Shown: positions 3,963-16,918 of the stretch, piece after piece
Layout of the letters: each line of letters begins with the position of its first letter
Position numbering within the stretch: the stretch's first letter is position 1
From: a virus
Lineage: Duplodnaviria > Heunggongvirae > Uroviricota > Caudoviricetes
Virus record (IMG/VR): IMGVR_UViG_3300045988_087939
Length of the DNA stretch: 17,676 nt
Reading direction: 5' to 3' (one strand)
Notes under the pieces: generated by a model
What the model was told of the DNA's origin: nothing
Database searches by the model: none
The model's input: only the letters and a program-made list of their open reading frames with translations
Translations under genes and position numbers: made by a program

Positions 3963-4748
3963 TTATGAGTGATTTTTATTTGATGCTTTGTATTCTAAAA
4001 CCTTCTTATTGGCGTAAAAGAATTTTGTATATGACAGGAATATAACCAGACCTGAAGTGAAATAGACGAGGGATAGTATTAATAATGCTTTTTTGTGACT
4101 GTTATTATCTTTAATCTCCTGGCTTAACCATTCGGAGTCCTCCTCGTTTAGCTGTAAGAGCTTATTGCAGGCGATTTCAGGAAGTGTGTCTTTTATAAAT
4201 ACGTTTTGCAGTCTCTTGCAATCGGCAAGGCTATAAGTTTTATTAAATTCAACTGCTTTATTTTTGAAGGATAAAAGAACTTTGTCACTATAAACATAGT
4301 ACATCATGTTTTTATATGGTATGCCTATGGCATCCCTTACTATAACGGATTGTTCGTTGTGTATGTAACATGCGAGGAGAATGTAAAAAATACTGGCCAG
4401 AATTACAATTATTGTTTTAATTATGTGTGGTGGTTTTGTTATGTCACCCCAGATGCGAGTAAGGAAAAAATACGATGTTTTTAGTTTTCCATCAATCAGT
4501 CCCTGCTGTATCATTCTCACATTTTCAATGCCTGATACATTGATTCCGTTAATTATTTTAAATAGTTGAATGTCGCGCCACTCGCGGTCAAGTCTTTTTA
4601 ATTTTTTGTCTGAATATCCAAAATTGAAATAATGTGCAATAAGCCTCATAAGGTTACTTTTACCAAAGCTAAAAAATGCTAATACTGCAAAGCTACAAAG
4701 GAAAAAAACGATTAGCCCCCACACATTAGTCACATTATAGCTGACCAT
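3963..4748 (-). CDS. AT-rich cargo (moron) gene: hypothetical 261-aa membrane protein with three predicted transmembrane segments, function unknown
   Basis: Reverse-strand ORF with a strong SD (AAGGAGAG) 4 nt upstream of the ATG. About 33% G+C in a sampled line against roughly 60% in flanking phage genes. Hydrophobic segments near residues 10-28, 103-123 and 220-240. Occupies the S-V junction, where P2 carries orf30. Confidence 0.8.
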   Translation of the reverse strand: MVSYNVTNVWGLIVFFLCSFAVLAFFSFGKSNLMRLIAHYFNFGYSDKKLKRLDREWRDIQLFKIINGINVSGIENVRMIQQGLIDGKLKTSYFFLTRIWGDITKPPHIIKTIIVILASIFYILLACYIHNEQSVIVRDAIGIPYKNMMYYVYSDKVLLSFKNKAVEFNKTYSLADCKRLQNVFIKDTLPEIACNKLLQLNEEDSEWLSQEIKDNNSHKKALLILSLVYFTSGLVIFLSYTKFFYANKKVLEYKASNKNHS

Positions 4749-4763
4749 TACGCTCTCCTTGGA

Positions 4764-4784
4764 TGTTGTCTGGTAGTTCTACAA
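4764..4784 (+). promoter_or_regulatory. Candidate late-promoter activator (Ogr-type) dyad upstream of V
   Basis: TGTTGTCTGGTAGTTCTACAA contains TGT-N11-ACA (4767-4783), about 50 nt upstream of a TATATAT -10-like element near 4808-4814. P2 late promoters carry a TGT-N12-ACA element near -55, so the spacing is off by one. Confidence 0.3.
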
Positions 4785-4831
4785 ATGAATCCAGATAGCA
4801 TAACTTTTATATATTGTGCAATCTCACATGC

Positions 4832-5467
4832 ATGAACACTCTCGCAAATATTCAGGAACTCGCGCGCGCACTGCGCAACATGATTCGCACCGGCATTATC
4901 GTCGAAACCGACCTTAACGCCGGTCGCTGCCGCGTGCAGACCGGCGGCATGTGCACCGACTGGCTTCAGTGGCTGACCCATCGCGCAGGACGTTCGCGCA
5001 CATGGTGGGCACCTTCCGTGGGGGAACAGGTGCTGATTCTGGCCGTGGGTGGTGAACTCGACACGGCGTTCGTTCTGCCGGGGATTTATTCCGGCGATAA
5101 CCCCTCGCCGTCTGTGTCGGCGGATGCCCTGCATATCCGTTTCCCTGACGGGGCGGTGATTGAATATGAACCCGAAACCAGTGCACTCACGGTAAGCGGA
5201 ATTAAAACGGCCAGCGTGACGGCTTCTGATTCTGTTACTGCCACGGTGCCGGTGGTCATGGTGAAAGCATCAACCCGCGTCACCCTGGACACCCCGGAGG
5301 TGGTCTGCACCAACAGGCTGATTACCGGCACGCTGGAAGTGCAGAAGGGCGGGACGATGCGCGGCAACATTGAACACACCGGCGGTGAACTCTCATCAAA
5401 CGGTAAGGTACTGCATACCCATAAACACCCCGGCGACAGCGGCGGCACAACCGGGAGTCCTTTATGA
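4832..5467 (+). CDS. V: Baseplate spike/assembly protein V (P2 gpV-like)
   Basis: 211 aa from ATG 4832, the length of P2 gpV; the listed ORF begins at an upstream TTG at 4814. Overlaps the W start (ATGA). Confidence 0.88.
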   Translation: MNTLANIQELARALRNMIRTGIIVETDLNAGRCRVQTGGMCTDWLQWLTHRAGRSRTWWAPSVGEQVLILAVGGELDTAFVLPGIYSGDNPSPSVSADALHIRFPDGAVIEYEPETSALTVSGIKTASVTASDSVTATVPVVMVKASTRVTLDTPEVVCTNRLITGTLEVQKGGTMRGNIEHTGGELSSNGKVLHTHKHPGDSGGTTGSPL

Positions 5468-5815: not shown

Positions 5816-6724
5816 ATGCCGATTATCGACCTGAACCAGCTACCCGCACCGGATGTGGTCGAGGAGCTGGACTTTGAAAGCATTCTCGCTGAACGCAAGG
5901 CGACACTGATTTCCCTTTACCCGGAAGATCAGCAGGAGGCGGTCGCCCGTACCCTGACACTGGAATCTGAGCCTCTCGTCAAACTGCTGGAAGAAAATGC
6001 TTATCGTGAGCTTATCTGGCGTCAGCGTGTGAATGAGGCCGCACGGGCGGTGATGCTGGCCTGTGCCGCCGGTAATGACCTTGATGTGATTGGTGCCAAT
6101 TACAACACCACGCGCCTGACTATCACCCCGGCAGATGATTCGACCATTCCGCCGACACCGGCAGTGATGGAATCTGACACAGATTATCGTCTGCGTATTC
6201 AGCAGGCTTTTGAGGGCTTAAGCGTCGCCGGGTCAGTGGGAGCCTATCAGTATCATGGTCGCAGTGCTGACGGGCGTGTCGCGGATATTTCTGTCACCAG
6301 TCCGTCTCCTGCCTGTGTCACCATCTCTGTGCTGTCACGTGAAAATAACGGCGTCGCATCCGAAGACCTGCTGGCTGTGGTGCGTAACGCCCTTAATGGC
6401 GAGGACGTCAGGCCGGTGGCCGACCGCGTGACCGTGCAGTCTGCCGCCATCGTTGAATACCAGATAAACGCCACGCTTTACCTTTACCCTGGTCCCGAAA
6501 GCGAACCCATCCGCGCTGCCGCTGTGAAAAAGCTGGAAGCGTATATCACGGCACAGCACCGGCTGGGGCGCGACATCCGTCTGTCTGCCATTTATGCCGC
6601 TTTGCATGTGGAAGGTGTGCAGCGTGTCGAACTGGCTGCACCACTGGCCGACATCGTGCTCAACAGTACGCAGGCGTCTTTCTGTACCGAATACCGCGTC
6701 GTGACCGGAGGCTCGGATGAGTGA
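5816..6724 (+). CDS. J: Baseplate assembly protein J (P2 gpJ-like)
   Basis: 302 aa, the length of P2 gpJ. Overlaps the I start by 8 nt. Confidence 0.88.
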   Translation: MPIIDLNQLPAPDVVEELDFESILAERKATLISLYPEDQQEAVARTLTLESEPLVKLLEENAYRELIWRQRVNEAARAVMLACAAGNDLDVIGANYNTTRLTITPADDSTIPPTPAVMESDTDYRLRIQQAFEGLSVAGSVGAYQYHGRSADGRVADISVTSPSPACVTISVLSRENNGVASEDLLAVVRNALNGEDVRPVADRVTVQSAAIVEYQINATLYLYPGPESEPIRAAAVKKLEAYITAQHRLGRDIRLSAIYAALHVEGVQRVELAAPLADIVLNSTQASFCTEYRVVTGGSDE

Positions 6725-7247
6725 TTCGCGACTGCTGCCGACCGGCTCATCACCGCTTGAGGTCGCCGCCGCAAAAGCCTGTGCGGAAATTGAAAAAACG
6801 CCGGTCAGTATTCGTGAGCTGTGGAACCCGGACACCTGTCCGGCAAATCTGCTGCCGTGGCTGGCGTGGGCGTTTTCGGTCGACAGGTGGGATGAAAAGT
6901 GGCCGGAAGCGACAAAACGCGCCGTTATCCGCGATGCGTATTTCATCCACTGTCATAAAGGCACAATAGGTGCAATCCGGCGTGTGGTGGAGCCGCTCGG
7001 CTATCTCATCAACGTGACGGAGTGGTGGGAAAACAGTGACCCGCCCGGCACCTTCCGGCTTGATATTGGTGTACTGGAAAGCGGCATCACAGAGGCAATG
7101 TATCAGGAAATGGAACGGCTGATTGCTGATGCCAAACCTGCAAGCCGCCACCTTATTGGCCTGAACATTACCCGGGACATTCCCGGCTACCTGTTCGCCG
7201 GTGGTGTGGCTTACGACGGCGATGTAATTACGGTTTACCCCGGATAA
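6717..7247 (+). CDS. I: Baseplate protein I (P2 gpI-like)
   Basis: 176 aa, the length of P2 gpI. Syntenic. Confidence 0.88.
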   Translation: MSDSRLLPTGSSPLEVAAAKACAEIEKTPVSIRELWNPDTCPANLLPWLAWAFSVDRWDEKWPEATKRAVIRDAYFIHCHKGTIGAIRRVVEPLGYLINVTEWWENSDPPGTFRLDIGVLESGITEAMYQEMERLIADAKPASRHLIGLNITRDIPGYLFAGGVAYDGDVITVYPG

Positions 7248-7257
7248 GTGAGGAATA

Positions 7258-9576
7258 ATGAGCACAAAATTCAGAACCGTTATCACCACTGCCGGTGCAG
7301 CAAAGCTGGCAGCGGCAACCGCACCGGGAGGGCGGAAGGTCAACATTACCACGATGGCCGTCGGGGATGGCGGTGGTAAATTGCCTGTCCCGGATGCCGG
7401 ACAGACCGGGCTTATCCATGAAGTCTGGCGACATGCGCTGAACAAAATCACCCTGGACAAACGAAACAGTAATTATATTATCGCAGAGCTGGTTATTCCG
7501 CCGGAGGTGGGCGGTTTCTGGATGCGTGAGCTTGGCCTGTACGATGATGCGGGAACGCTAATTGCCGTGGCGAACATGGCTGAAAGTTATAAACCCGCTC
7601 TTGCCGAAGGCTCAGGGCGTTCGCAGACCTGCCGCATGGTCATCATCGTCAGCAGTGTGGCCTCAGTGGAGCTGACCATTGACACCACAACGGTGATGGC
7701 AACGCAGGATTACGTTGATGACAAAATTGCAGAGCATGAACAGTCACGACGTCACCCGGACGCCTCGCTGACCGCAAAAGGTTTTACTCAGTTAAGCAGT
7801 GCAACCAACAGCGCGTCTGAAACACTGGCCGCAACGCCGAAAGCGGTAAAGGCCGCCTATGACCTTGCTAACGGGAAATATACCGCACAGGACGCTACCA
7901 CAGCGCGAAAAGGTCTTGTCCAGCTCAGTAGTGCCACCAACAGCACGTCTGAAACGCTCGCCGCAACACCAAAAGCGGTTAAGGCAGCGTATGACCTTGC
8001 TAACGGTAAATATACTGCACAGGACGCCACCACAGTGCGAAAAGGTCTTATCCAGCTCAGTAGCGTCACCAACAGCGATTCTGAAACGCTTGCGGCAACG
8101 CCAAAGGCGGTAAAGGCAGCGTATGACCTTGCTAACGGGAAATACACTGCACAGGATGCCACCACGGCGCGGAAAGGGCTTGTCCAGCTCAGTAGCGCCA
8201 CCAACAGTGATTCTGAAACGCTGGCCGCAACACCAAAAGCGGTGAAGTCTGCCTATGACAATGCTGAAAAACGTCTTCAGAAAGATCAGAACGGTGCGGA
8301 TATTCCGGGAAAGGATACCTTCACGAAAAATATCGGTGCCTGTCGTGCTTATAGCGGCGCTTTGAGCACTGAAGCCGGAAACTGGACAACCGCTCAGTTT
8401 ATTGAATGGCTGGATTCCCGTGGTGCATTTAATCATCCGTACTGGATGTGCAAAGGCTCCTGGTCATATGCAAATAACAAAATCATTACGGATACCGGAT
8501 GTGGTGATATCCACCTGGCTGGTTGTGTCGTCGAGGTCATGGGAACTAAATCTGCAATCACTATCCGAGTGACCACGCCGACAACATCAAGCGGTGGCGG
8601 TACAACCAGCGCACAATTCACTTACATTAATCATGGGGACGGCTACTCCCCCGGCTGGCGTCGTGACTGGAATCGTCAGGGCGACGCAATGACCGGAACG
8701 ATTAATCAGGACGGTGGAAGCCAGAATGCCTATATGTCTACGGCCTTATGTTCAGGCACAAGAGGCGGCAAAAAATATCTCAGAAAGTTTCGTGGTGGAG
8801 AAGGAGACACTATCTGGCATGAAACAGTACAGGGCGGGGTAGTTCGTTGGGCGACTGGTAATACTGATGCTCAGGAAGAATTATCACTCAGCTCCGCTTA
8901 TGGTCTCCGTTCAAGAGGTGAGATTACATCACTCAGTGCTAATGGTCTGCGCATTGCTTATGGCAATTATGGATTCTTTATCAGGAATGATGGCGGCAGC
9001 ACATATTTAATGCTGACGGCCTCTGGCGATAAATTTGGGACATGGAACGGCTTAAGACCGCTGACTATCAATAACGCCAATGGCGGAGTGTCAATGGGGC
9101 ATGGCCTGAGTGTTACAGGTGATATTGTCTCAAGTACCAAAGTACGTGCCGGTAGCGGGAAAAAGTTCACGGTCAGCAGCAGCAATACATCCACGAAGGA
9201 AGCCGCATTCAATTTGTGGGGAAACTCAAGTCGTCCTGTGGTGGCTGAATTAGGTGATGATGCAGGCTGGCATTTTTACAGTCAGAGAAATACAGATAAC
9301 AGCATCACTTTTGCTGTTAACGGGCAGGTATCACCATCTAACTATGGCAACTTTGATTCACGCTATGTCCGGGATATCCGGCTTGGTGGTGCTGCCACAT
9401 ACAAACCTGCGAACAATGGTATGACATGGACACATCAGGCACCGTCCGGGTGTGTATATTCCGGCATTATTGTTCAGGATACCGGCTCAAACTCTGCCGA
9501 TAACATTGGTGGCGTATATTACAGACCGGTGCAGAAATACATTAACGGGACTTGGTATAACGTGGCGCAGGTATAA
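7258..9576 (+). CDS. H: Tail fiber protein (P2 gpH-like) with a conserved N-terminal domain, four tandem fibre repeats and a divergent receptor-binding region
   Basis: 772-aa ORF with SD GTGAGGAA. The N-terminal ~170 aa and the C-terminal tail (…IQKYINGTWYNVAQV) resemble P2 gpH as I recall it. Four 44-aa repeats (…QLSSATNSxSETLAATPKAVKAAYDLANGKYTAQDATTARK). Central part is lower in G+C (about 42-43% in sampled lines). Confidence 0.88.
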   Translation: MSTKFRTVITTAGAAKLAAATAPGGRKVNITTMAVGDGGGKLPVPDAGQTGLIHEVWRHALNKITLDKRNSNYIIAELVIPPEVGGFWMRELGLYDDAGTLIAVANMAESYKPALAEGSGRSQTCRMVIIVSSVASVELTIDTTTVMATQDYVDDKIAEHEQSRRHPDASLTAKGFTQLSSATNSASETLAATPKAVKAAYDLANGKYTAQDATTARKGLVQLSSATNSTSETLAATPKAVKAAYDLANGKYTAQDATTVRKGLIQLSSVTNSDSETLAATPKAVKAAYDLANGKYTAQDATTARKGLVQLSSATNSDSETLAATPKAVKSAYDNAEKRLQKDQNGADIPGKDTFTKNIGACRAYSGALSTEAGNWTTAQFIEWLDSRGAFNHPYWMCKGSWSYANNKIITDTGCGDIHLAGCVVEVMGTKSAITIRVTTPTTSSGGGTTSAQFTYINHGDGYSPGWRRDWNRQGDAMTGTINQDGGSQNAYMSTALCSGTRGGKKYLRKFRGGEGDTIWHETVQGGVVRWATGNTDAQEELSLSSAYGLRSRGEITSLSANGLRIAYGNYGFFIRNDGGSTYLMLTASGDKFGTWNGLRPLTINNANGGVSMGHGLSVTGDIVSSTKVRAGSGKKFTVSSSNTSTKEAAFNLWGNSSRPVVAELGDDAGWHFYSQRNTDNSITFAVNGQVSPSNYGNFDSRYVRDIRLGGAATYKPANNGMTWTHQAPSGCVYSGIIVQDTGSNSADNIGGVYYRPVQKYINGTWYNVAQV
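7780..8259 (+). repeat. Tandem 132-bp (44-codon) repeat, about 3.6 copies, inside the tail fiber gene
   Basis: Units begin at 7780, 7912, 8044 and 8176 (the last is partial). Protein-level identity is near-complete while the DNA differs at many wobble positions. Confidence 0.85.
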
Positions 9577-9579
9577 TTT

Positions 9580-10107
9580 ATGCAGCATTTGATAAATATA
9601 ACGGCAGGTAATCCAAAAACGGTTGAACAATATCAATTGACAAAAGACTTTGATGTTGTCTGGTTTTTTTCAGAAGATGGTAAGAACTGGTACGAAGAAC
9701 AAAAGTATTTTGCTGATGACACGCTAAAAATAGCGTACGACAAAGATAATATCATCCGCTATGTGGAAAAGGATGTGACAGCTATCAGACCGGATGGATT
9801 AAGTGTTGTTGAAGTGGCGGATATTACTGCTAACCGACGGGCGGACATTTCAGGGAACTGGATGTTTAAGGACGGCAAAGTGATTAAACGCATTTATACG
9901 GCAGAGGAATTGCAGCAGCAGGCAGAAAACCGGAAAGCCAGACTTCTTGCAGATGCTGAATCCGTGATTTTGCCGCTGGAGCGTGCTGTCAGACTGAACA
10001 TGGCAACAGATGAGGAGCGTAGCCGACTGGAAGCATGGGAACGCTACAGCGTTCTGGTCAGTCGTGTGGATCCTGCAAATCCTGAATGGCCGGAAATGCC
10101 GCAATAA
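9580..10107 (+). CDS. G: Tail fiber assembly protein / chaperone (P2 gpG-like)
   Basis: 175 aa, the length of P2 gpG. Immediately follows H; the C-terminal part resembles tail-fiber-assembly proteins. The N-terminal part is AT-rich (about 32% in one sampled line). Confidence 0.85.
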
Positions 10108-10369: not shown

Positions 10370-11983
10370 ATGAGCAATTCATTTTCAATTACACTACCTA
10401 CAAAAGAAAAAGACCTAGCGGAAATAGAGACTAATCAGAGCGTGCTTATTATCGGTGCGAATGGCTCTGGAAAGTCTCGCCTTGGGACATGGATGGATCT
10501 AAAATCTCCTCAAAGAAATATTGTTCATCGTATTTCCGCTCAGCGGGCTTTAGCGATGCCTGACCATACAACACCAACTTCGCTTCAACAAGCACAGAAT
10601 AATTTACTCTATGGAATTGAAAATTTGGAAGGGTCGGAACTACTTTGGTATAAAGAGAATTATCGCTGGGGAAGTAAACCTGCCATATCATCATTAAATG
10701 ATTATGGTAAATTAATGGTGTATCTCTTTTCAGACAAAATTGAAGAAAACTCGAAATATATTGAATTAGTTAAATCTTCAGAAAAAAGAATTGAACCAAC
10801 GACGACTAAATTAGATAAAATTAAATATATTTGGGAAAAAACATTACCTCACCGAGAGCTTGTTTTAGGCGGTTTGACAATTCAAACACGAGCAAAAGGA
10901 AATAACGAGGCTGTCTATAACCCCTCGGAAATGAGCGACGGTGAGCGAGTTATTTTCTATCTGATTGGGCAATGTCTTGCAGCACCCGAAAATGGAATTA
11001 TTGTCATAGACGAGCCAGAAATTCATCTTCACAAATCTGTACAAGTTCCATTATGGAAGGATATAGAAAAACTCCGACCTGATTGCCTGTTTGTATATAT
11101 GACTCATGATACTGATTTTGCTGCAGCACTGCATGATGCAAAGAAAATCTGGTTAAAAAGTTATGATGGTTCCAGTTGGGATTGGGAAGATGTTCCCGAT
11201 GTCGAAGGCCTACCAGAAAGTTTATTAATTGAAATATTGGGTAGTAGAAAACCAATTGTTTTTGTTGAGGGGGAAAATGGAAGCTATGATGTATCCCTTT
11301 ATCGTGCTGTGTTAAATAGTTATCTAGTGATACCATCTGGTTCTTGTAGTCAAGTAATACAAAATGTTAAAGCTCTAAGAGCCAGTGAAAAACTCCATTA
11401 TATGGAAGTTTTTGGTATTATTGATAGGGATAGACGTGTTGAAAATGAAATTCAATCGCTTCTGGAATACGGTATTTATACTCTAAGCGTGGCTGAAGTC
11501 GAAAATCTCTTTTGCGTTCCGGAAGTTATAACTTTAGTTAGCGAACGATTAGTCAGGAATCCAGATAAAGATCTACAATCAGTTAAAGATTTTGTGTTCC
11601 GTAAAATATCCTCAGAGCTGGATACTCAGATTTCACTGCGTGTGGCTGGCGAAATTAAATTCATGCTTAATTGTTTTGATGAAAAAGCAAAAGGGGTCGA
11701 TGCTCTTAGTAGAGCTCTTGAGTTGTTGACGTCACAAATTAATGTTAAAGAGCTTTATGATGAAAGTTTATCTCTGTTTAATAATGCAGTTGAGAAACGT
11801 GATTATCTTCTTGCATTAAAACTTTATAACAGGAAAAGCCTTTCATCCCAAGTAAGTAAGCATCTGGGGCTGGCTAATGGACAGCTTGCTGAATTAGTGG
11901 TCAGGATGGCTAATAATGAAAGTGGAGAGTCAATGAGAAATGCTCTCAGACCATATTTTGGTGAGTTTTCGAGTAAAATATAG
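10370..11983 (+). CDS. Cargo gene in the G-FI (Z/fun) hotspot: ABC-type ATPase fused to a Toprim/DUF4435-like putative nuclease domain; candidate single-gene anti-phage defence protein (OLD-like or fused PARIS-like)
   Basis: 537 aa. Walker A GANGSGKS (aa 29-36, nt 10454-10477); signature-like MSDGER (aa 188-193); Walker B IIVIDEPE followed by HLH (aa 210-221); H-loop-like YMTHD (aa 243-247). C-terminal half has Toprim-like motifs: IVFVEGENGSYD (aa 296-307), IIDRDRR (aa 350-356) and VAEVEN (aa 374-379), then a helical tail. G+C is about 25-43% in sampled lines. Confidence 0.8.
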   Translation: MSNSFSITLPTKEKDLAEIETNQSVLIIGANGSGKSRLGTWMDLKSPQRNIVHRISAQRALAMPDHTTPTSLQQAQNNLLYGIENLEGSELLWYKENYRWGSKPAISSLNDYGKLMVYLFSDKIEENSKYIELVKSSEKRIEPTTTKLDKIKYIWEKTLPHRELVLGGLTIQTRAKGNNEAVYNPSEMSDGERVIFYLIGQCLAAPENGIIVIDEPEIHLHKSVQVPLWKDIEKLRPDCLFVYMTHDTDFAAALHDAKKIWLKSYDGSSWDWEDVPDVEGLPESLLIEILGSRKPIVFVEGENGSYDVSLYRAVLNSYLVIPSGSCSQVIQNVKALRASEKLHYMEVFGIIDRDRRVENEIQSLLEYGIYTLSVAEVENLFCVPEVITLVSERLVRNPDKDLQSVKDFVFRKISSELDTQISLRVAGEIKFMLNCFDEKAKGVDALSRALELLTSQINVKELYDESLSLFNNAVEKRDYLLALKLYNRKSLSSQVSKHLGLANGQLAELVVRMANNESGESMRNALRPYFGEFSSKI

Positions 11984-12258: not shown

Positions 12259-13449
12259 ATGAGTGACTATCATCACGGCGTGCAGGTGCTGGAGATTAAC
12301 GACGGCACCCGCGTCATTTCCACCGTATCCACCGCCATTGTCGGCATGGTCTGCACGGCCAGCGATGCGGATGCGGAAATCTTCCCCCTCAATAAACCGG
12401 TGCTGATTACCAATGTGCAGAGCGCAATTGCAAAGGCCGGTAAAAAAGGCACGCTGGCGGCATCGTTGCAGGCCATCGCCGACCAGTCAAAACCGGTCAC
12501 CGTTGTCGTGCGTGTGGAAGACGGCACCGGCGAAGACGAAGAAACGAAACTCGCGCAGACTGTTTCCAATATCATCGGAACCACCGACGAAAACGGTCAG
12601 TACACCGGACTGAAAGCCCTGCTGGCGGCGGAGTCGGTAACCGGTGTTAAACCGCGTATTCTTGGTGTGCCGGGGCTGGATACCAAAGAGGTGGCTGTTG
12701 CACTGGCATCAGTCTGTCAGAAGCTGCGCGCTTTCGGGTATATCAGCGCATGGGGCTGTAAAACCATTTCTGAGGTGAAAGCCTACCGCCAGAATTTCAG
12801 CCAGCGTGAGCTGATGGTCATCTGGCCGGATTTCCTCGCATGGGATACGGTCACCAGTACCACCGCCACCGCGTATGCCACCGCACGTGCGCTGGGTCTG
12901 CGTGCCAAAATCGACCAGGAGCAGGGCTGGCATAAAACGCTGTCCAACGTCGGGGTGAACGGTGTTACCGGCATCAGCGCATCTGTATTTTGGGATTTGC
13001 AGGAGTCCGGCACCGATGCTGACCTGCTTAACGAGTCAGGCGTCACAACACTGATTCGCCGTGACGGTTTCCGCTTCTGGGGTAACCGTACCTGCTCTGA
13101 TGACCCGCTGTTCTTCTTTGAAAACTACACCCGCACCGCGCAGGTGCTGGCCGACACGATGGCTGAGGCGCACATGTGGGCGGTGGACAAGCCCATCACC
13201 GCAACGCTGATTCGCGACATCGTTGACGGCATCAATGCCAAATTCCGTGAGCTGAAAACAAACGGCTATATCGTGGATGCGACCTGCTGGTTCAGCGAAG
13301 AATCCAACGATGCGGAAACCCTCAAGGCCGGAAAACTGTATATCGACTACGACTATACCCCGGTGCCTCCTCTTGAAAACCTGACCCTGCGCCAGCGTAT
13401 CACCGATAAATATCTGGCAAATCTGGTCACCTCGGTTAACAGCAATTAA
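12259..13449 (+). CDS. FI: Contractile tail sheath protein (P2 gpFI-like)
   Basis: 396 aa, the length of P2 gpFI. Syntenic; high G+C. Confidence 0.9.
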   Translation: MSDYHHGVQVLEINDGTRVISTVSTAIVGMVCTASDADAEIFPLNKPVLITNVQSAIAKAGKKGTLAASLQAIADQSKPVTVVVRVEDGTGEDEETKLAQTVSNIIGTTDENGQYTGLKALLAAESVTGVKPRILGVPGLDTKEVAVALASVCQKLRAFGYISAWGCKTISEVKAYRQNFSQRELMVIWPDFLAWDTVTSTTATAYATARALGLRAKIDQEQGWHKTLSNVGVNGVTGISASVFWDLQESGTDADLLNESGVTTLIRRDGFRFWGNRTCSDDPLFFFENYTRTAQVLADTMAEAHMWAVDKPITATLIRDIVDGINAKFRELKTNGYIVDATCWFSEESNDAETLKAGKLYIDYDYTPVPPLENLTLRQRITDKYLANLVTSVNSN

Positions 13450-14312: not shown

Positions 14313-14464
14313 CGTTCCCGAAAAATCTGTCGGTCGATGACCTGATGGCGGATGTGGCAGTGATATTTCACTGGGCGTGGTCTTGCGTATATCCCATGAG
14401 CCTGACCGAACTCATCACATGGCGCGAAAAGGCGCTCCGGCGAAGCGGAAACACGAATGAGTAA
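14037..14464 (+). CDS. E+E': Tail assembly chaperone E+E' made by a programmed -1 ribosomal frameshift
   Basis: Slippery T_TTT_TTG at 14285-14291 in the E frame. The -1 frame is open from 14291 to a TAA at 14462-14464, encoding VAELGAVTFPKNLSVDDLMADVAVIFHWAWSCVYPMSLTELITWREKALRRSGNTNE, and overlaps the T start. Confidence 0.75.
14285..14291 (+). promoter_or_regulatory. -1 programmed frameshift slippery heptamer (T TTT TTG)
   Basis: X_XXY_YYZ heptamer in the E reading frame, at the same relative place as the P2 E/E' shift. Confidence 0.7.
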
Positions 14465-15572
14465 CAATGTAAAATTACAGGTATTGCTCAGGGCTGTTGA
14501 CCAGGCATCCCGCCCGTTTAAATCCATCCGCACAGCGAGCAAGTCGCTGTCGGGGGATATCCGGGAAACACAAAAATCACTGCGCGAGCTGAATGGTCAC
14601 GCATCCCGTATTGAGGGATTTCGCAAGACCAGCGCACAGCTCGCCGTGACTGGTCATGCACTTGAAAAGGCACGGCAGGAGGCCGAAGCCCTTGCCACAC
14701 AGTTTAAAAACACTGAACGTCCGACCCGTGCTCAGGCGAAAGTGCTGGAATCCGCAAAGCGTGCGGCGGAGGACTTACAGGCGAAATATAACCGCCTGAT
14801 AGATTCCGTTAAACGCCAGCAGCGGGAACTGGCCGCTGTGGGAATTAATACCCGCAATCTTGCACATGATGAGCAGGGACTGAAAAACCGTATCAGTGAA
14901 ACCACCGCACAGCTTAACCGTCAGCGTGATGCGCTGGCGCGTGTCAGTGCGCAACAGGCAAAACTTAACGCAGTAAAACAGCGTTATCAGGCCGGAAAGG
15001 AACTGGCCGGAAATATGGCCTCAGTGGGCGCTGCCGGTGTGGGGATTGCGGCGGCGGGAACGATGGCCGGAGTTAAGTTGCTGATGCCCGGTTATGAGTT
15101 TGCGCAGAAAAACTCAGAATTGCAGGCCGTGCTCGGAGTGGCAAAAGACTCCGCCGAAATGACCGCACTACGCAAACAGGCGCGCCAGCTCGGCGACAAT
15201 ACCGCCGCCTCGGCGGATGATGCGGCCGGTGCACAGATAATCATCGCGAAAGCGGGTGGGGATGTTGATGCCATTCAGGCGGCAACGCCGGTCACGCTGA
15301 ATATGGCGCTGGCGAACCGCCGCACGATGGAAGAAAACGCCGCCCTGCTGATGGGGATGAAATCCGCCTTTCAGCTTTCAAACGATAAGGTCGCTCATAT
15401 CGGGGATGTTCTCTCCATGACGATGAACAAAACCGCCGCCGATTTTGACGGCATGAGCGATGCGCTGACCTATGCCGCACCTGTGGCAAAAAATGCCGGT
15501 GTCAGCATTGAAGAAACCGCCGCAATGGTCGGGGCGCTGCATGATGCAAAAATCACAGGCTCAATGTGTTAA
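14457..15572 (+). CDS. T: Tail tape measure protein (P2 gpT-like), N-terminal fragment; reading frame ends prematurely
   Basis: 371-aa ORF, helical and Ala/Gln-rich as tape measure proteins are. Ends at TAA 15570-15572; the protein continues in another frame (next feature). Confidence 0.8.
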   Translation: MSNNVKLQVLLRAVDQASRPFKSIRTASKSLSGDIRETQKSLRELNGHASRIEGFRKTSAQLAVTGHALEKARQEAEALATQFKNTERPTRAQAKVLESAKRAAEDLQAKYNRLIDSVKRQQRELAAVGINTRNLAHDEQGLKNRISETTAQLNRQRDALARVSAQQAKLNAVKQRYQAGKELAGNMASVGAAGVGIAAAGTMAGVKLLMPGYEFAQKNSELQAVLGVAKDSAEMTALRKQARQLGDNTAASADDAAGAQIIIAKAGGDVDAIQAATPVTLNMALANRRTMEENAALLMGMKSAFQLSNDKVAHIGDVLSMTMNKTAADFDGMSDALTYAAPVAKNAGVSIEETAAMVGALHDAKITGSMC

Positions 15573-16918
15573 GCCGCCTGCAGGTACCGACGGGAAAAGC
15601 ATGGGATGCTCTCAAAGAGCTTGGAGTGAAAACCTCAGACAGCAAAGGAAACTCCCGGTCAATATTTACCATTCTGAAAGAAATGCAGGCCAGTTTTGAG
15701 AAAAACCGGCTCGGTACTGCCCAGCAGGCTGAATACATGAAAACTATTTTCGGGGAGGAGGCCAGCTCAGCCGCCGCCGTGCTGATGACTGCCGCCTCAA
15801 CCGGAAAGCTGGACAAACTGACCGCTGCGTTTAAAGCCTCAGACGGGAAGACCGCCGAGCTGGTAAATATCATGCAGGACAACCTAGGCGGTGACTTTAA
15901 AGAGTTTCAGTCCGCTTATGAGGCGGTGGGGACTGACCTGTTTGACCAGCAGGAAGGCGCGCTGCGTAAGCTCACGCAGACGGCCACAAAGTATGTGTTA
16001 AAACTCGACGGCTGGATACAGAAAAACAAATCACTGGCGTCAACCATCGGCATCATTGTCGGTGGTGCACTGGCGCTGACTGGTGTCATCAGTGCCATTG
16101 GCCTCGTAGCCTGGCCGGTTATCACCGGCATTAATGCCATCATCGCGGCAGCAGGCGCAATGGGTGCAATCTTCACGACGGTTGGCAGTGCCGTTATGAC
16201 GGCCATCGGGGCGATTAGCTGGCCGGTTGTGGCTGGGGGGGGCGGCCATTGCGGCCGGGGGGTGGTTTTAGTGCCTGCCGCCATTGTCGCCGGGGCGTTG
16301 CTTATCCGTAAATACTGGGAGCCTGTCAGCGCATTCTTTGGCGGTGTGGTTGAAGGGCTGAAAGCGGCATTTGCGCCGGTGAGGGAGCTGTTCACGCCAC
16401 TGAAACCGGTGTTTGACTGGCTGGGCGAAAAGTTACAGGCCGCGTGGCAGTGGTTTAAAAATCTGATTGCCCCGGTTAAAGCCACACAGGACACCCTGAA
16501 CCGTTGCCGTGACACGGGGGTCATGTTCGGGCAGGCACTGGCTGACGCGCTGATGCTGCCGCTTAATGCGTTCAACAAACTGCGCAGCGGTATTGACTGG
16601 GTACTGGAAAAACTCGGGGTTATCAACAAAGAGTCAGACACACTTGACCAGACCGCCGCCAGAACTCATGCCGCCACGTATGGCACCGGTGGTTATATTC
16701 CGGCGACCAGCTCTTATGCATGTTATCAGGCTTATCAGCCGGTTACGGCACCGGCTGGCCGCTCTTATGTGGACCAGAGTAAAAACGAATATCACATCAG
16801 CCTGACGGGTGGTACTGCGCCGGGGACACAGCTTGACCGCCAGTTACAGGATGCGCTCGAAAAATACGAGCGGGATAAACGTGCGCGCGCCCGTGCCAGC
16901 ATGATGCATGACGGTTAA
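15566..16918 (+). CDS. T: Tail tape measure protein (P2 gpT-like), C-terminal fragment in a different frame
   Basis: 450-aa ORF whose frame is open from 15545 and has no ATG near its start. The two fragments together total about 819 aa, close to the ~815 aa I recall for P2 gpT. Contains Gly/Ala-rich hydrophobic segments. Confidence 0.75.
   Translation: MLSRLQVPTGKAWDALKELGVKTSDSKGNSRSIFTILKEMQASFEKNRLGTAQQAEYMKTIFGEEASSAAAVLMTAASTGKLDKLTAAFKASDGKTAELVNIMQDNLGGDFKEFQSAYEAVGTDLFDQQEGALRKLTQTATKYVLKLDGWIQKNKSLASTIGIIVGGALALTGVISAIGLVAWPVITGINAIIAAAGAMGAIFTTVGSAVMTAIGAISWPVVAGGGGHCGRGVVLVPAAIVAGALLIRKYWEPVSAFFGGVVEGLKAAFAPVRELFTPLKPVFDWLGEKLQAAWQWFKNLIAPVKATQDTLNRCRDTGVMFGQALADALMLPLNAFNKLRSGIDWVLEKLGVINKESDTLDQTAARTHAATYGTGGYIPATSSYACYQAYQPVTAPAGRSYVDQSKNEYHISLTGGTAPGTQLDRQLQDALEKYERDKRARARASMMHDG

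Follow-up and report, generated by a model that had tools for sequence, protein, structure and literature searches.

The repeat catalogued as PF03406 was first noted in the lambda Stf fibre, and knowledge of this domain was called scant in that earlier paper (PMC3368898). A closely related described fibre is gpH of phage P2, for which AF3-derived trimer models were fitted into a low-resolution fibre map in a 2026 preprint (10.64898/2026.09.14.750843). In this preprint, gpH is a ~54-nm homotrimer whose parts are an adaptor, 'two repeat domains (RBPseg-D19)', domains for extension and anchoring, and a distal end with a knob of the Gp34 type and a tip resembling that of Mu. The N-terminal domain of the P2 fibre binds gpI, and the anchor domains of the retracted fibre contact specific sheath layers (10.64898/2026.09.14.750843). 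The D19 domain class is also present in T4 gp34-like fibres (PMC12143355). For phage Mu, just the N-terminus of the fibre gp49 was modelled in the cryo-EM study (PMC11915804). The published P2 pseudotyping paper makes no mention of the repeats.

Herein, a stretch of viral DNA of 17,676 nucleotides (the window) was analyzed. The window is the late-gene region of an E. coli P2-like (Peduovirus) prophage, and the gene at 7258-9576 is the P2 gpH-type tail fibre of this prophage. The identity of the gene follows from the Pfam matches, the gpI-gpH-gpG order, and the 100% match to annotated E. coli prophage genes. The gene is 100% identical to the RefSeq CDS 'tail fiber protein' WP_000104737.1 of E. 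coli MB07081, and two E. coli chromosomes carry the 100% identical CDS. Some match to the gene occurs in 2,415 E. coli genomes, and a match that covers at least 80% of it in 173 complete ones. The genes in the window run gpJ-gpI-gpH-gpG and then sheath, and the P2 order is identical from gpJ through gpG. All features are listed in Table 1.

Table 1 Features of the fibre locus, with positions counted from the first letter of the window.
Feature	Position	Strand	Basis
Baseplate_J (gpJ)	5816-6724		Pfam
Tail_P2_I (gpI)	6717-7247		Pfam
gpH-type tail fibre gene, 772 aa	7258..9576	+	ORF, translation, Pfam PF12571, four PF03406 stretches and PF21446
N-terminal baseplate-adaptor domain, residues 1-173	7258..7776	+	PF12571 Phage_tail_fib on residues 1-151, E 3.1e-58
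Repeat unit A (KGFTQLSSATNSASETLAATPKAVKAAYDLANGKYTAQDATTAR)	7777..7908	+	In-frame unit alignment
Repeat unit B	7909..8040	+	In-frame unit alignment
Repeat unit C	8041..8172	+	In-frame unit alignment
Terminal partial unit D, ~29 codons, ending at the AATPKAVK junction	8173..8259	+	In-frame unit alignment
Distal receptor-binding part, mosaic	8260..9576	+	Mu S-type structure matches, PF21446
Antisense ORF, 214 aa, kept open by the repeat; spurious	7792..8436	-	Without Pfam match
Antisense ORF, 115 aa; spurious	7857..8204	-	Without significant Pfam match
gpG-type tail fibre assembly chaperone	9580..10107	+	PF02413 Caudo_TAP, E 7.4e-35; MB07081 annotation 'tail fiber assembly protein'
Sheath gene	12259-13449		Pfam

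The array contains 3.66 in-frame copies of a 132-bp (44-codon) unit at 7777-8259, and it sits between the N-terminal baseplate adaptor and the mosaic, Mu-S-like receptor-binding part. A sequence-only reading of the window had placed about 3.6 copies of a 44-codon unit in the tail fibre gene at 7780-8259; both the coordinates and the count were right. Tandem Repeats Finder reported 7804-8259 with a period of 132, 3.5 copies, 87% matches, 0% indels, and a score of 681. A repeat search returned three 226-nt copies spaced 132 nt apart, with the first at 7776. The 132-bp periodicity that had been expected was also clear from self-identity over 7777-8259, which reached 86% at shift 132 and 84% at shift 264, against a mean of 25.7% (sd 3.7, maximum 33.7%) at the remaining shifts from 20 to 299. 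The periodicity is bounded by ~7777-7780 and ~8259. At the protein level the units start at residues 174, 218, 262, and 306, with a spacing of exactly 44.

The unit matches the Pfam family PF03406 (Phage_fiber_2) in four stretches with 249.6 bits and E 9.4e-76, where the curated gathering cut-off is 22 bits. The best stretch aligns residues 170-210 with profile positions 1-41 of 42. The above-threshold profile match is accompanied by tandem units of ~40-44 residues in a protein with the fibre domains PF12571 and PF21446, and these place the unit in the family. The repeat is the already catalogued 'phage tail fibre repeat' and an ordinary feature. The sequence-only reading had not recognised the unit as the long-known PF03406. 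The distal part aligns with Mu structures in two stretches, one with the S/S' chimera 8ju3 at residues 333-487 (E 2.9e-69) and one with Mu S 5yvq at residues 544-771 (E 1.1e-41), and PF21446 (Gp34_trimer) lies on residues 541-604.

Units A to C are nearly identical as protein and diverged at synonymous sites, as had been noticed from the sequence. In pairwise comparison, 4 of 44 residues differ, against 17-24 of 132 nucleotides, and 12-19 of the nucleotide differences fall at third codon positions. Nei-Gojobori estimates between the paralogous units gave dS of 0.47-1.16, dN of 0.05-0.11, and dN/dS of 0.05-0.12. Because dN/dS is this low, the unit peptide is under strong purifying selection, and the earlier suggestion of selection on the protein repeat is borne out. 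The peptide is also nearly invariant across Enterobacteriaceae genera with saturated N-terminal dS.

The age of the array was read from comparison of each unit with units in other phages. Units of the window differ from their positional counterparts in other phages by 2-9 nucleotides per 81 nt, versus 11-19 from their own paralogues. For unit A, the nearest unit in every relative is the first one, at 3-8 differences in 81 nt, where its own paralogues are 16-19 away. In relatives with a B-type unit, unit 2 is the orthologue of unit B (again 3-8 differences). The orthologue of unit C is unit 3 in the four-copy phages and unit 2 in fiAA91-ss and STYP1, with 2-9 differences over the 81 nt. The units A-B-C-D are old paralogues, each with a positional orthologue in related phages. 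Since the units are closest to their positional counterparts, the four-unit array is older than the divergence of these phages. Orthologous dS within the array is 0.15-0.28. For the N-terminal domain, orthologous dS against P2-group phages is 0.07-0.11 (codons 1-173 against AF063097 gpH: dN 0.018, dS 0.109), and the paralogous unit dS is 5-10 times this value. The synonymous sites of the units have drifted apart with age, and the peptide was held by purifying selection; age and purifying selection on the peptide suffice for the pattern of synonymous divergence.

Copy number was then compared among related fibre genes. The best 120 protein matches were biased to many-copy and partial proteins, so the census was made from loci retrieved by the N-terminal domain alone, which makes retrieval independent of repeat number. 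Among 76 complete IMG/VR genes with an N-terminus at least 98% identical, 15 carry two copies, 2 carry three, 50 carry four, and 9 carry five; 15 of the 76 genes are exactly 772 aa long. At 37 Enterobacteriaceae loci, one genome per species, 0 to 4 copies were found by counting pattern, and the spacing was always 44 residues. Named phages with two copies are P2, P2_AC1, and HQ103; those with three are P37, fiAA91-ss, and STYP1; those with four are vB_YpM_46, the 'P2' isolate NC_070905, P2_2H4, and vB_EcoM-12474III. Overall, the copy number of gpH-type fibres ranges from 1 to 6, with 2, 4, and 5 common in close relatives; matches in the protein database have 3-6 copies. An exhaustive search with one unit found the repeat in 1,695 representative clusters. 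These clusters reach 14-17 more diverged matches in a single protein, and 11-12 near-identical copies occur in other fibre families. PF03406 stretches per protein range from 1 to 17 across the family. The array had been called expanded. This description does not hold: four copies are the modal state in close relatives, gpH-type fibres with five or six copies exist, and the finding is ordinary.

The order of unit types was determined in 90 close relatives. The string A-B-C-D was found in 45, A-B in 18, A-B-C-C-D in 8, A-B-B-D in 5, A-B-D and A-C-C-D in 3 each, and A-C-D and A-B-B-C-D in 2 each. Unit A is always first, D-type units are normally last, and copy-number variants differ by whole 132-bp units. 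A young unit pair is present in 8 of 10 five-copy arrays, where the extra unit has 0-7 differences per 81 nt from its neighbour. The B-B pair of one relative (L027) is identical, and P2_AC1 and P2_2H4 carry hybrid units with an A-type 5' half and a B-type 3' half. From the gain and loss of whole internal units, with A first and D normally last, we infer that unequal homologous recombination is ongoing in the arrays of the relatives. Such recombination between units would remove or duplicate internal units and thus change the copy number.

The distal module always joins within the last unit, directly after AATPKAVK, and this holds for all 13 post-array module classes. The last unit is at once a repeat and a splice point for distal modules. 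Between copy number and the class of the distal module there is a tight link. The P2-type module is found with two copies in 17 of 17 genes, the window-type module with four copies in 22 of 24, and one further module class with five copies in 8 of 9. This link may come from co-inheritance or from length matching, and much of the copy-number variation may result from inheritance with the module rather than from free tuning of length.

The proposed role of the repeat is that of a modular spacer. By analogy with the P2 fibre, each unit would form one discrete 'repeat domain' of the shaft in the homotrimeric fibre. The copy number would then set the length of the proximal shaft, and with it how far the distal modules reach and in what geometry they dock. 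A PDB sequence search with the repeat region matched only Mu S and the S/S' chimera (E about 1e-12), the others, with E >0.4, being noise, and the repeat is clearly visible in none of the solved structures. An AlphaFold2 monomer model of residues 141-381 was built from a 21-sequence alignment and used for secondary structure only, as its 3D fold is unusable (mean pLDDT 38.6, pTM 0.33). At this low confidence, the model gives each unit a short strand and a helix of 11-12 residues.

Several other explanations were weighed against this reading. The canonical P2 gpH (AF063097), P2_AC1, and HQ103 have two copies, and the array of the window could accordingly be imagined to have grown from a P2-like ancestor with two copies only recently and only in this prophage, by slippage or duplication. 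This is extremely improbable, as a near-identical unit pair is absent in the window, where even the two most similar units differ at 11 of 81 nt, the A-B-C-D order with orthologous units recurs in half of the close relatives, and 173 complete E. coli genomes have a match over at least 80% of the gene. Genes with two copies invariably have another distal module and are a different mosaic, not an ancestor. Recent expansion in this prophage was rejected on unit orthology, and the earlier argument against recent slippage stands for this array, its four units being positional orthologues of the units of other phages. As an alternative to that argument, selection against recombinational collapse had been raised, in which the synonymous divergence is itself selected and codon scrambling blocks the collapse of the array. 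The minimal efficient processing segment of RecA recombination is roughly 23-27 bp. The longest identical runs in the array, 26 bp between neighbouring units and 23 bp at two-unit distance, are near this segment, and four copies are kept in most genes of the window's distal-module class. However, when the same 49 differences were placed at random, with or without the codon-position classes kept, the longest run had a mean of 27.7-28.8 bp and an sd of ~7, with 27.7 +/- 6.8 bp for the randomisation that kept the classes, and the observed 26-bp run was typical of this null (P 0.43-0.53 for a longest run of at most this length). Age alone predicts a divergence of this size, given the ratio of paralogous to N-terminal orthologous dS. 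Nor are the arrays protected, as relatives show losses (A-B-D, A-C-D), young duplicates, and an identical B-B pair. The proposed selection against collapse is thus improbable and finds no support in the run lengths.

The antisense ORFs at 7792-8436 and 7857-8204 had been read as spurious, and this was confirmed. Their length could speak for a real overlapping gene, and the 7857-8204 frame shares the sense wobble position, so that it would look conserved. However, significant Pfam matches were found for neither ORF, and the first codon position of the 7792-8436 ORF lies on the sense wobble position. In none of the 90 relatives was either frame free of stops within the array; the counts vary from 1 to 3 in the 7792-8436 frame, with extra stops in 28 of 90 relatives, and from 1 to 7 in the 7857-8204 frame. 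The unit differences lie at sense third positions, and the ORF length scales with copy number. A real antisense gene has next to no probability and was rejected on the Pfam result and the stops in relatives; both ORFs are by-products of a repeating unit without antisense stops. A role at the DNA level deserves more weight. The repeat could be a conserved homology patch for the exchange of distal modules, with extra copies as more targets for crossover. The fixed junction of all 13 module classes in the last unit agrees with this, as do the same repeat unit behind unrelated N-terminal domains in other fibres and in Mu S, and the A/B hybrid units. Against it, the peptide is conserved far more than the DNA, as the dN/dS between units indicates, which points to selection on the protein. 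A homology patch is a tentative, rather unlikely reading, which would complement the structural role and not replace it. A less probable and quite speculative reading concerns the copy number itself, which could be co-selected with the distal module, either for docking of the retracted fibre in register with the sheath lattice or for reach of the tip through O-antigen or capsule. Co-selection would explain why each module class has one characteristic copy number despite the variants made by recombination.

Taken together, the data argue with high probability for a 3.66-copy PF03406 array in the proximal shaft of gpH, made of old A-B-C-D paralogues, gaining and losing whole units by recombination, and presumably acting as a length spacer.

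As a discovery the array has little weight, since the repeat is a curated Pfam repeat and other E. coli genomes encode an annotated RefSeq protein identical to the gene product. A two-copy version was already described structurally as the 'repeat domains' of the P2 fibre. The useful results are the ordered A-B-C-D architecture in P2-group fibres, with gain and loss of entire units, and the conserved AATPKAVK in the last unit as a natural splice point for distal modules. The unit architecture and the junction are practical for the engineering of chimeric P2 and tailocin fibres and for the annotation of fibre genes. The link between copy number and module provides a testable hypothesis of length matching.

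P2 gpH (AF063097) is among the closest known fibres. It had been given as ~670 aa with fewer copies against 772 aa here, which is accurate, as gpH of P2 has 669 aa and two units and the fibre of the window has four. The difference in length had been set beside the copy number. This accounts for the larger part only: of the 103-residue excess, 88 residues come from the two extra units, and 15 come from the different distal module. Units A and B of P2 are orthologous to those of the window (3 and 8 differences in 81 nt), and the N-terminal adaptor (dS 0.11, dN 0.018) and the gpI-gpH-gpG order are shared. After the AATPKAVK of its second unit, P2 gpH continues with an unrelated module, 'TVMDETNKKAPLNSPALTG...' ('TVMDETNKK...'), of 425 aa versus 440 aa in the window. 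A knob of the Gp34_trimer type and a tip like that of Mu are common to both fibres, as stated for P2 in the preprint (10.64898/2026.09.14.750843) and as given for the window's fibre by the PF21446 and Mu S matches. The repeat domains of P2 gpH were put in RBPseg class D19 by the same preprint. D19 occurs in T4 gp34-like proximal long tail fibres, and the short tail fibre of T4 has a part similar to it (PMC12143355), so the link of the repeat to T4 fibres is literature-based.

The four-copy Peduovirus fibres vB_YpM_46 (764 aa), NC_070905 (736 aa), P2_2H4 (748 aa), and vB_EcoM-12474III (642 aa) share the A-B-C-D array with the window. Array dS against the window is 0.15-0.28, and the differences are confined to the extreme C-terminal, receptor-binding portion. 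The Yersinia phage vB_YpM_46 has 96.6% identity over 92% of the window's gene. Mu S/gp49 (5yvq, 9ki1; chimera 8ju3) has one repeat copy followed by the same 'NA..RL.KD.NGADIP' linker as the window, and its distal domains are homologous to those of the window's fibre (E 1.1e-60 and 1.1e-90). Mu S differs from the window's fibre in its lone repeat, its N-terminus, and the invertible G segment that switches S and S'; an invertase and an invertible segment are absent at the window's fibre locus. In the PF03406 family as a whole, the same tandem unit of ~42-44 residues is found in a trimeric fibre protein without essential difference from the window, and the 3.66 copies of the window lie within the range of the family.

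The interval between the fibre chaperone gene gpG and the sheath gene of the prophage holds an ORF that matches the fused AriAB model over its full length (PADLOC, E 1.9e-187). This model represents single-gene PARIS anti-phage defence, and the DUF4435 and AAA_21 domains were both identified in the product by Pfam. The RefSeq name of the product is 'DUF4435 domain-containing protein', and nothing more. In P2, the same interval is occupied by fun(Z), which lies on the opposite strand, whereas the window carries the AriAB-type gene.

Two further ORFs are placed between the tail-completion genes and the spike gene gpV. Neither had any match in Pfam or PADLOC. The pair may be moron or defence cargo, in which case the prophage would have another variable spot here, its second.

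Candidate defence and cargo ORFs in the window, with strand and source of the assignment
Feature	Length (aa)	Position	Strand	Assignment
ORF	261	3963-4748	-	'hypothetical protein' in MB07081 annotation
ORF	128	4748-5134	-	no Pfam or PADLOC match
Fused AriAB-type ORF	537	10370-11983	+	PADLOC model match

The prophage of E. coli strain MB07081 is identical to the window across most of its length, and the differences include the following. In the tape-measure gene (14457-16918), 22 bp of MB07081, GGCGGGGACGGGAAGCCGTGCC, are absent from the window at about 15565, so that the 815-aa gene is broken into two ORFs, one of 371 aa and the other of 450 aa. This gap indicates either a defective, frameshifted prophage or a sequence error. 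At 14375-14387, within a GpE-family tail assembly ORF, 9 positions are substituted within 13 nt (window, GCGTGGTCTTGCG; MB07081, CCGCCATCAGAAC), and the surrounding region is identical.

Related loci show signs of possible rearrangement within the fibre repeats. The first repeat unit is a hybrid in L004 (P2_AC1) and L008 (P2_2H4), with a type A 5' half and a 3' half bearing the type-B signature. A unit of this kind points to an exchange between adjacent units, by either unequal crossover or gene conversion. Three fibre proteins from the database search, with unrelated N-termini (P0121, P0122, and P0123) carry 7-12 near-identical copies of the 44-residue unit of the window. These copies follow a higher-order period of roughly 101 residues, in which the 44-residue unit alternates with a longer unit containing GKAPSSHTHPWNQITGVPTASLTA, and some of the three proteins are terminated by the P2-type distal module. 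Loci of gpH-like type with 73-79% identity to the N-terminal domain of the window fibre were found in three genome contigs (L096, L114, and L119), whose record titles name a Sporobacter termitidis MAG, a Vagococcus sp., and a Chryseobacterium sp. These records are most likely mis-binned or contaminated assemblies, because the P2-type prophage is enterobacterial.

The distal half of the window fibre, residues 333-771 (8254-9573), has a mosaic make-up, with parts of Mu type. The S' portion of the S/S' chimera of Mu (8ju3) is matched by residues 333-487, and Mu S itself (5yvq) by residues 544-771. In Mu, such modules are used in alternation via inversion of the G segment, whereas in the window fibre both are fused within one polypeptide.
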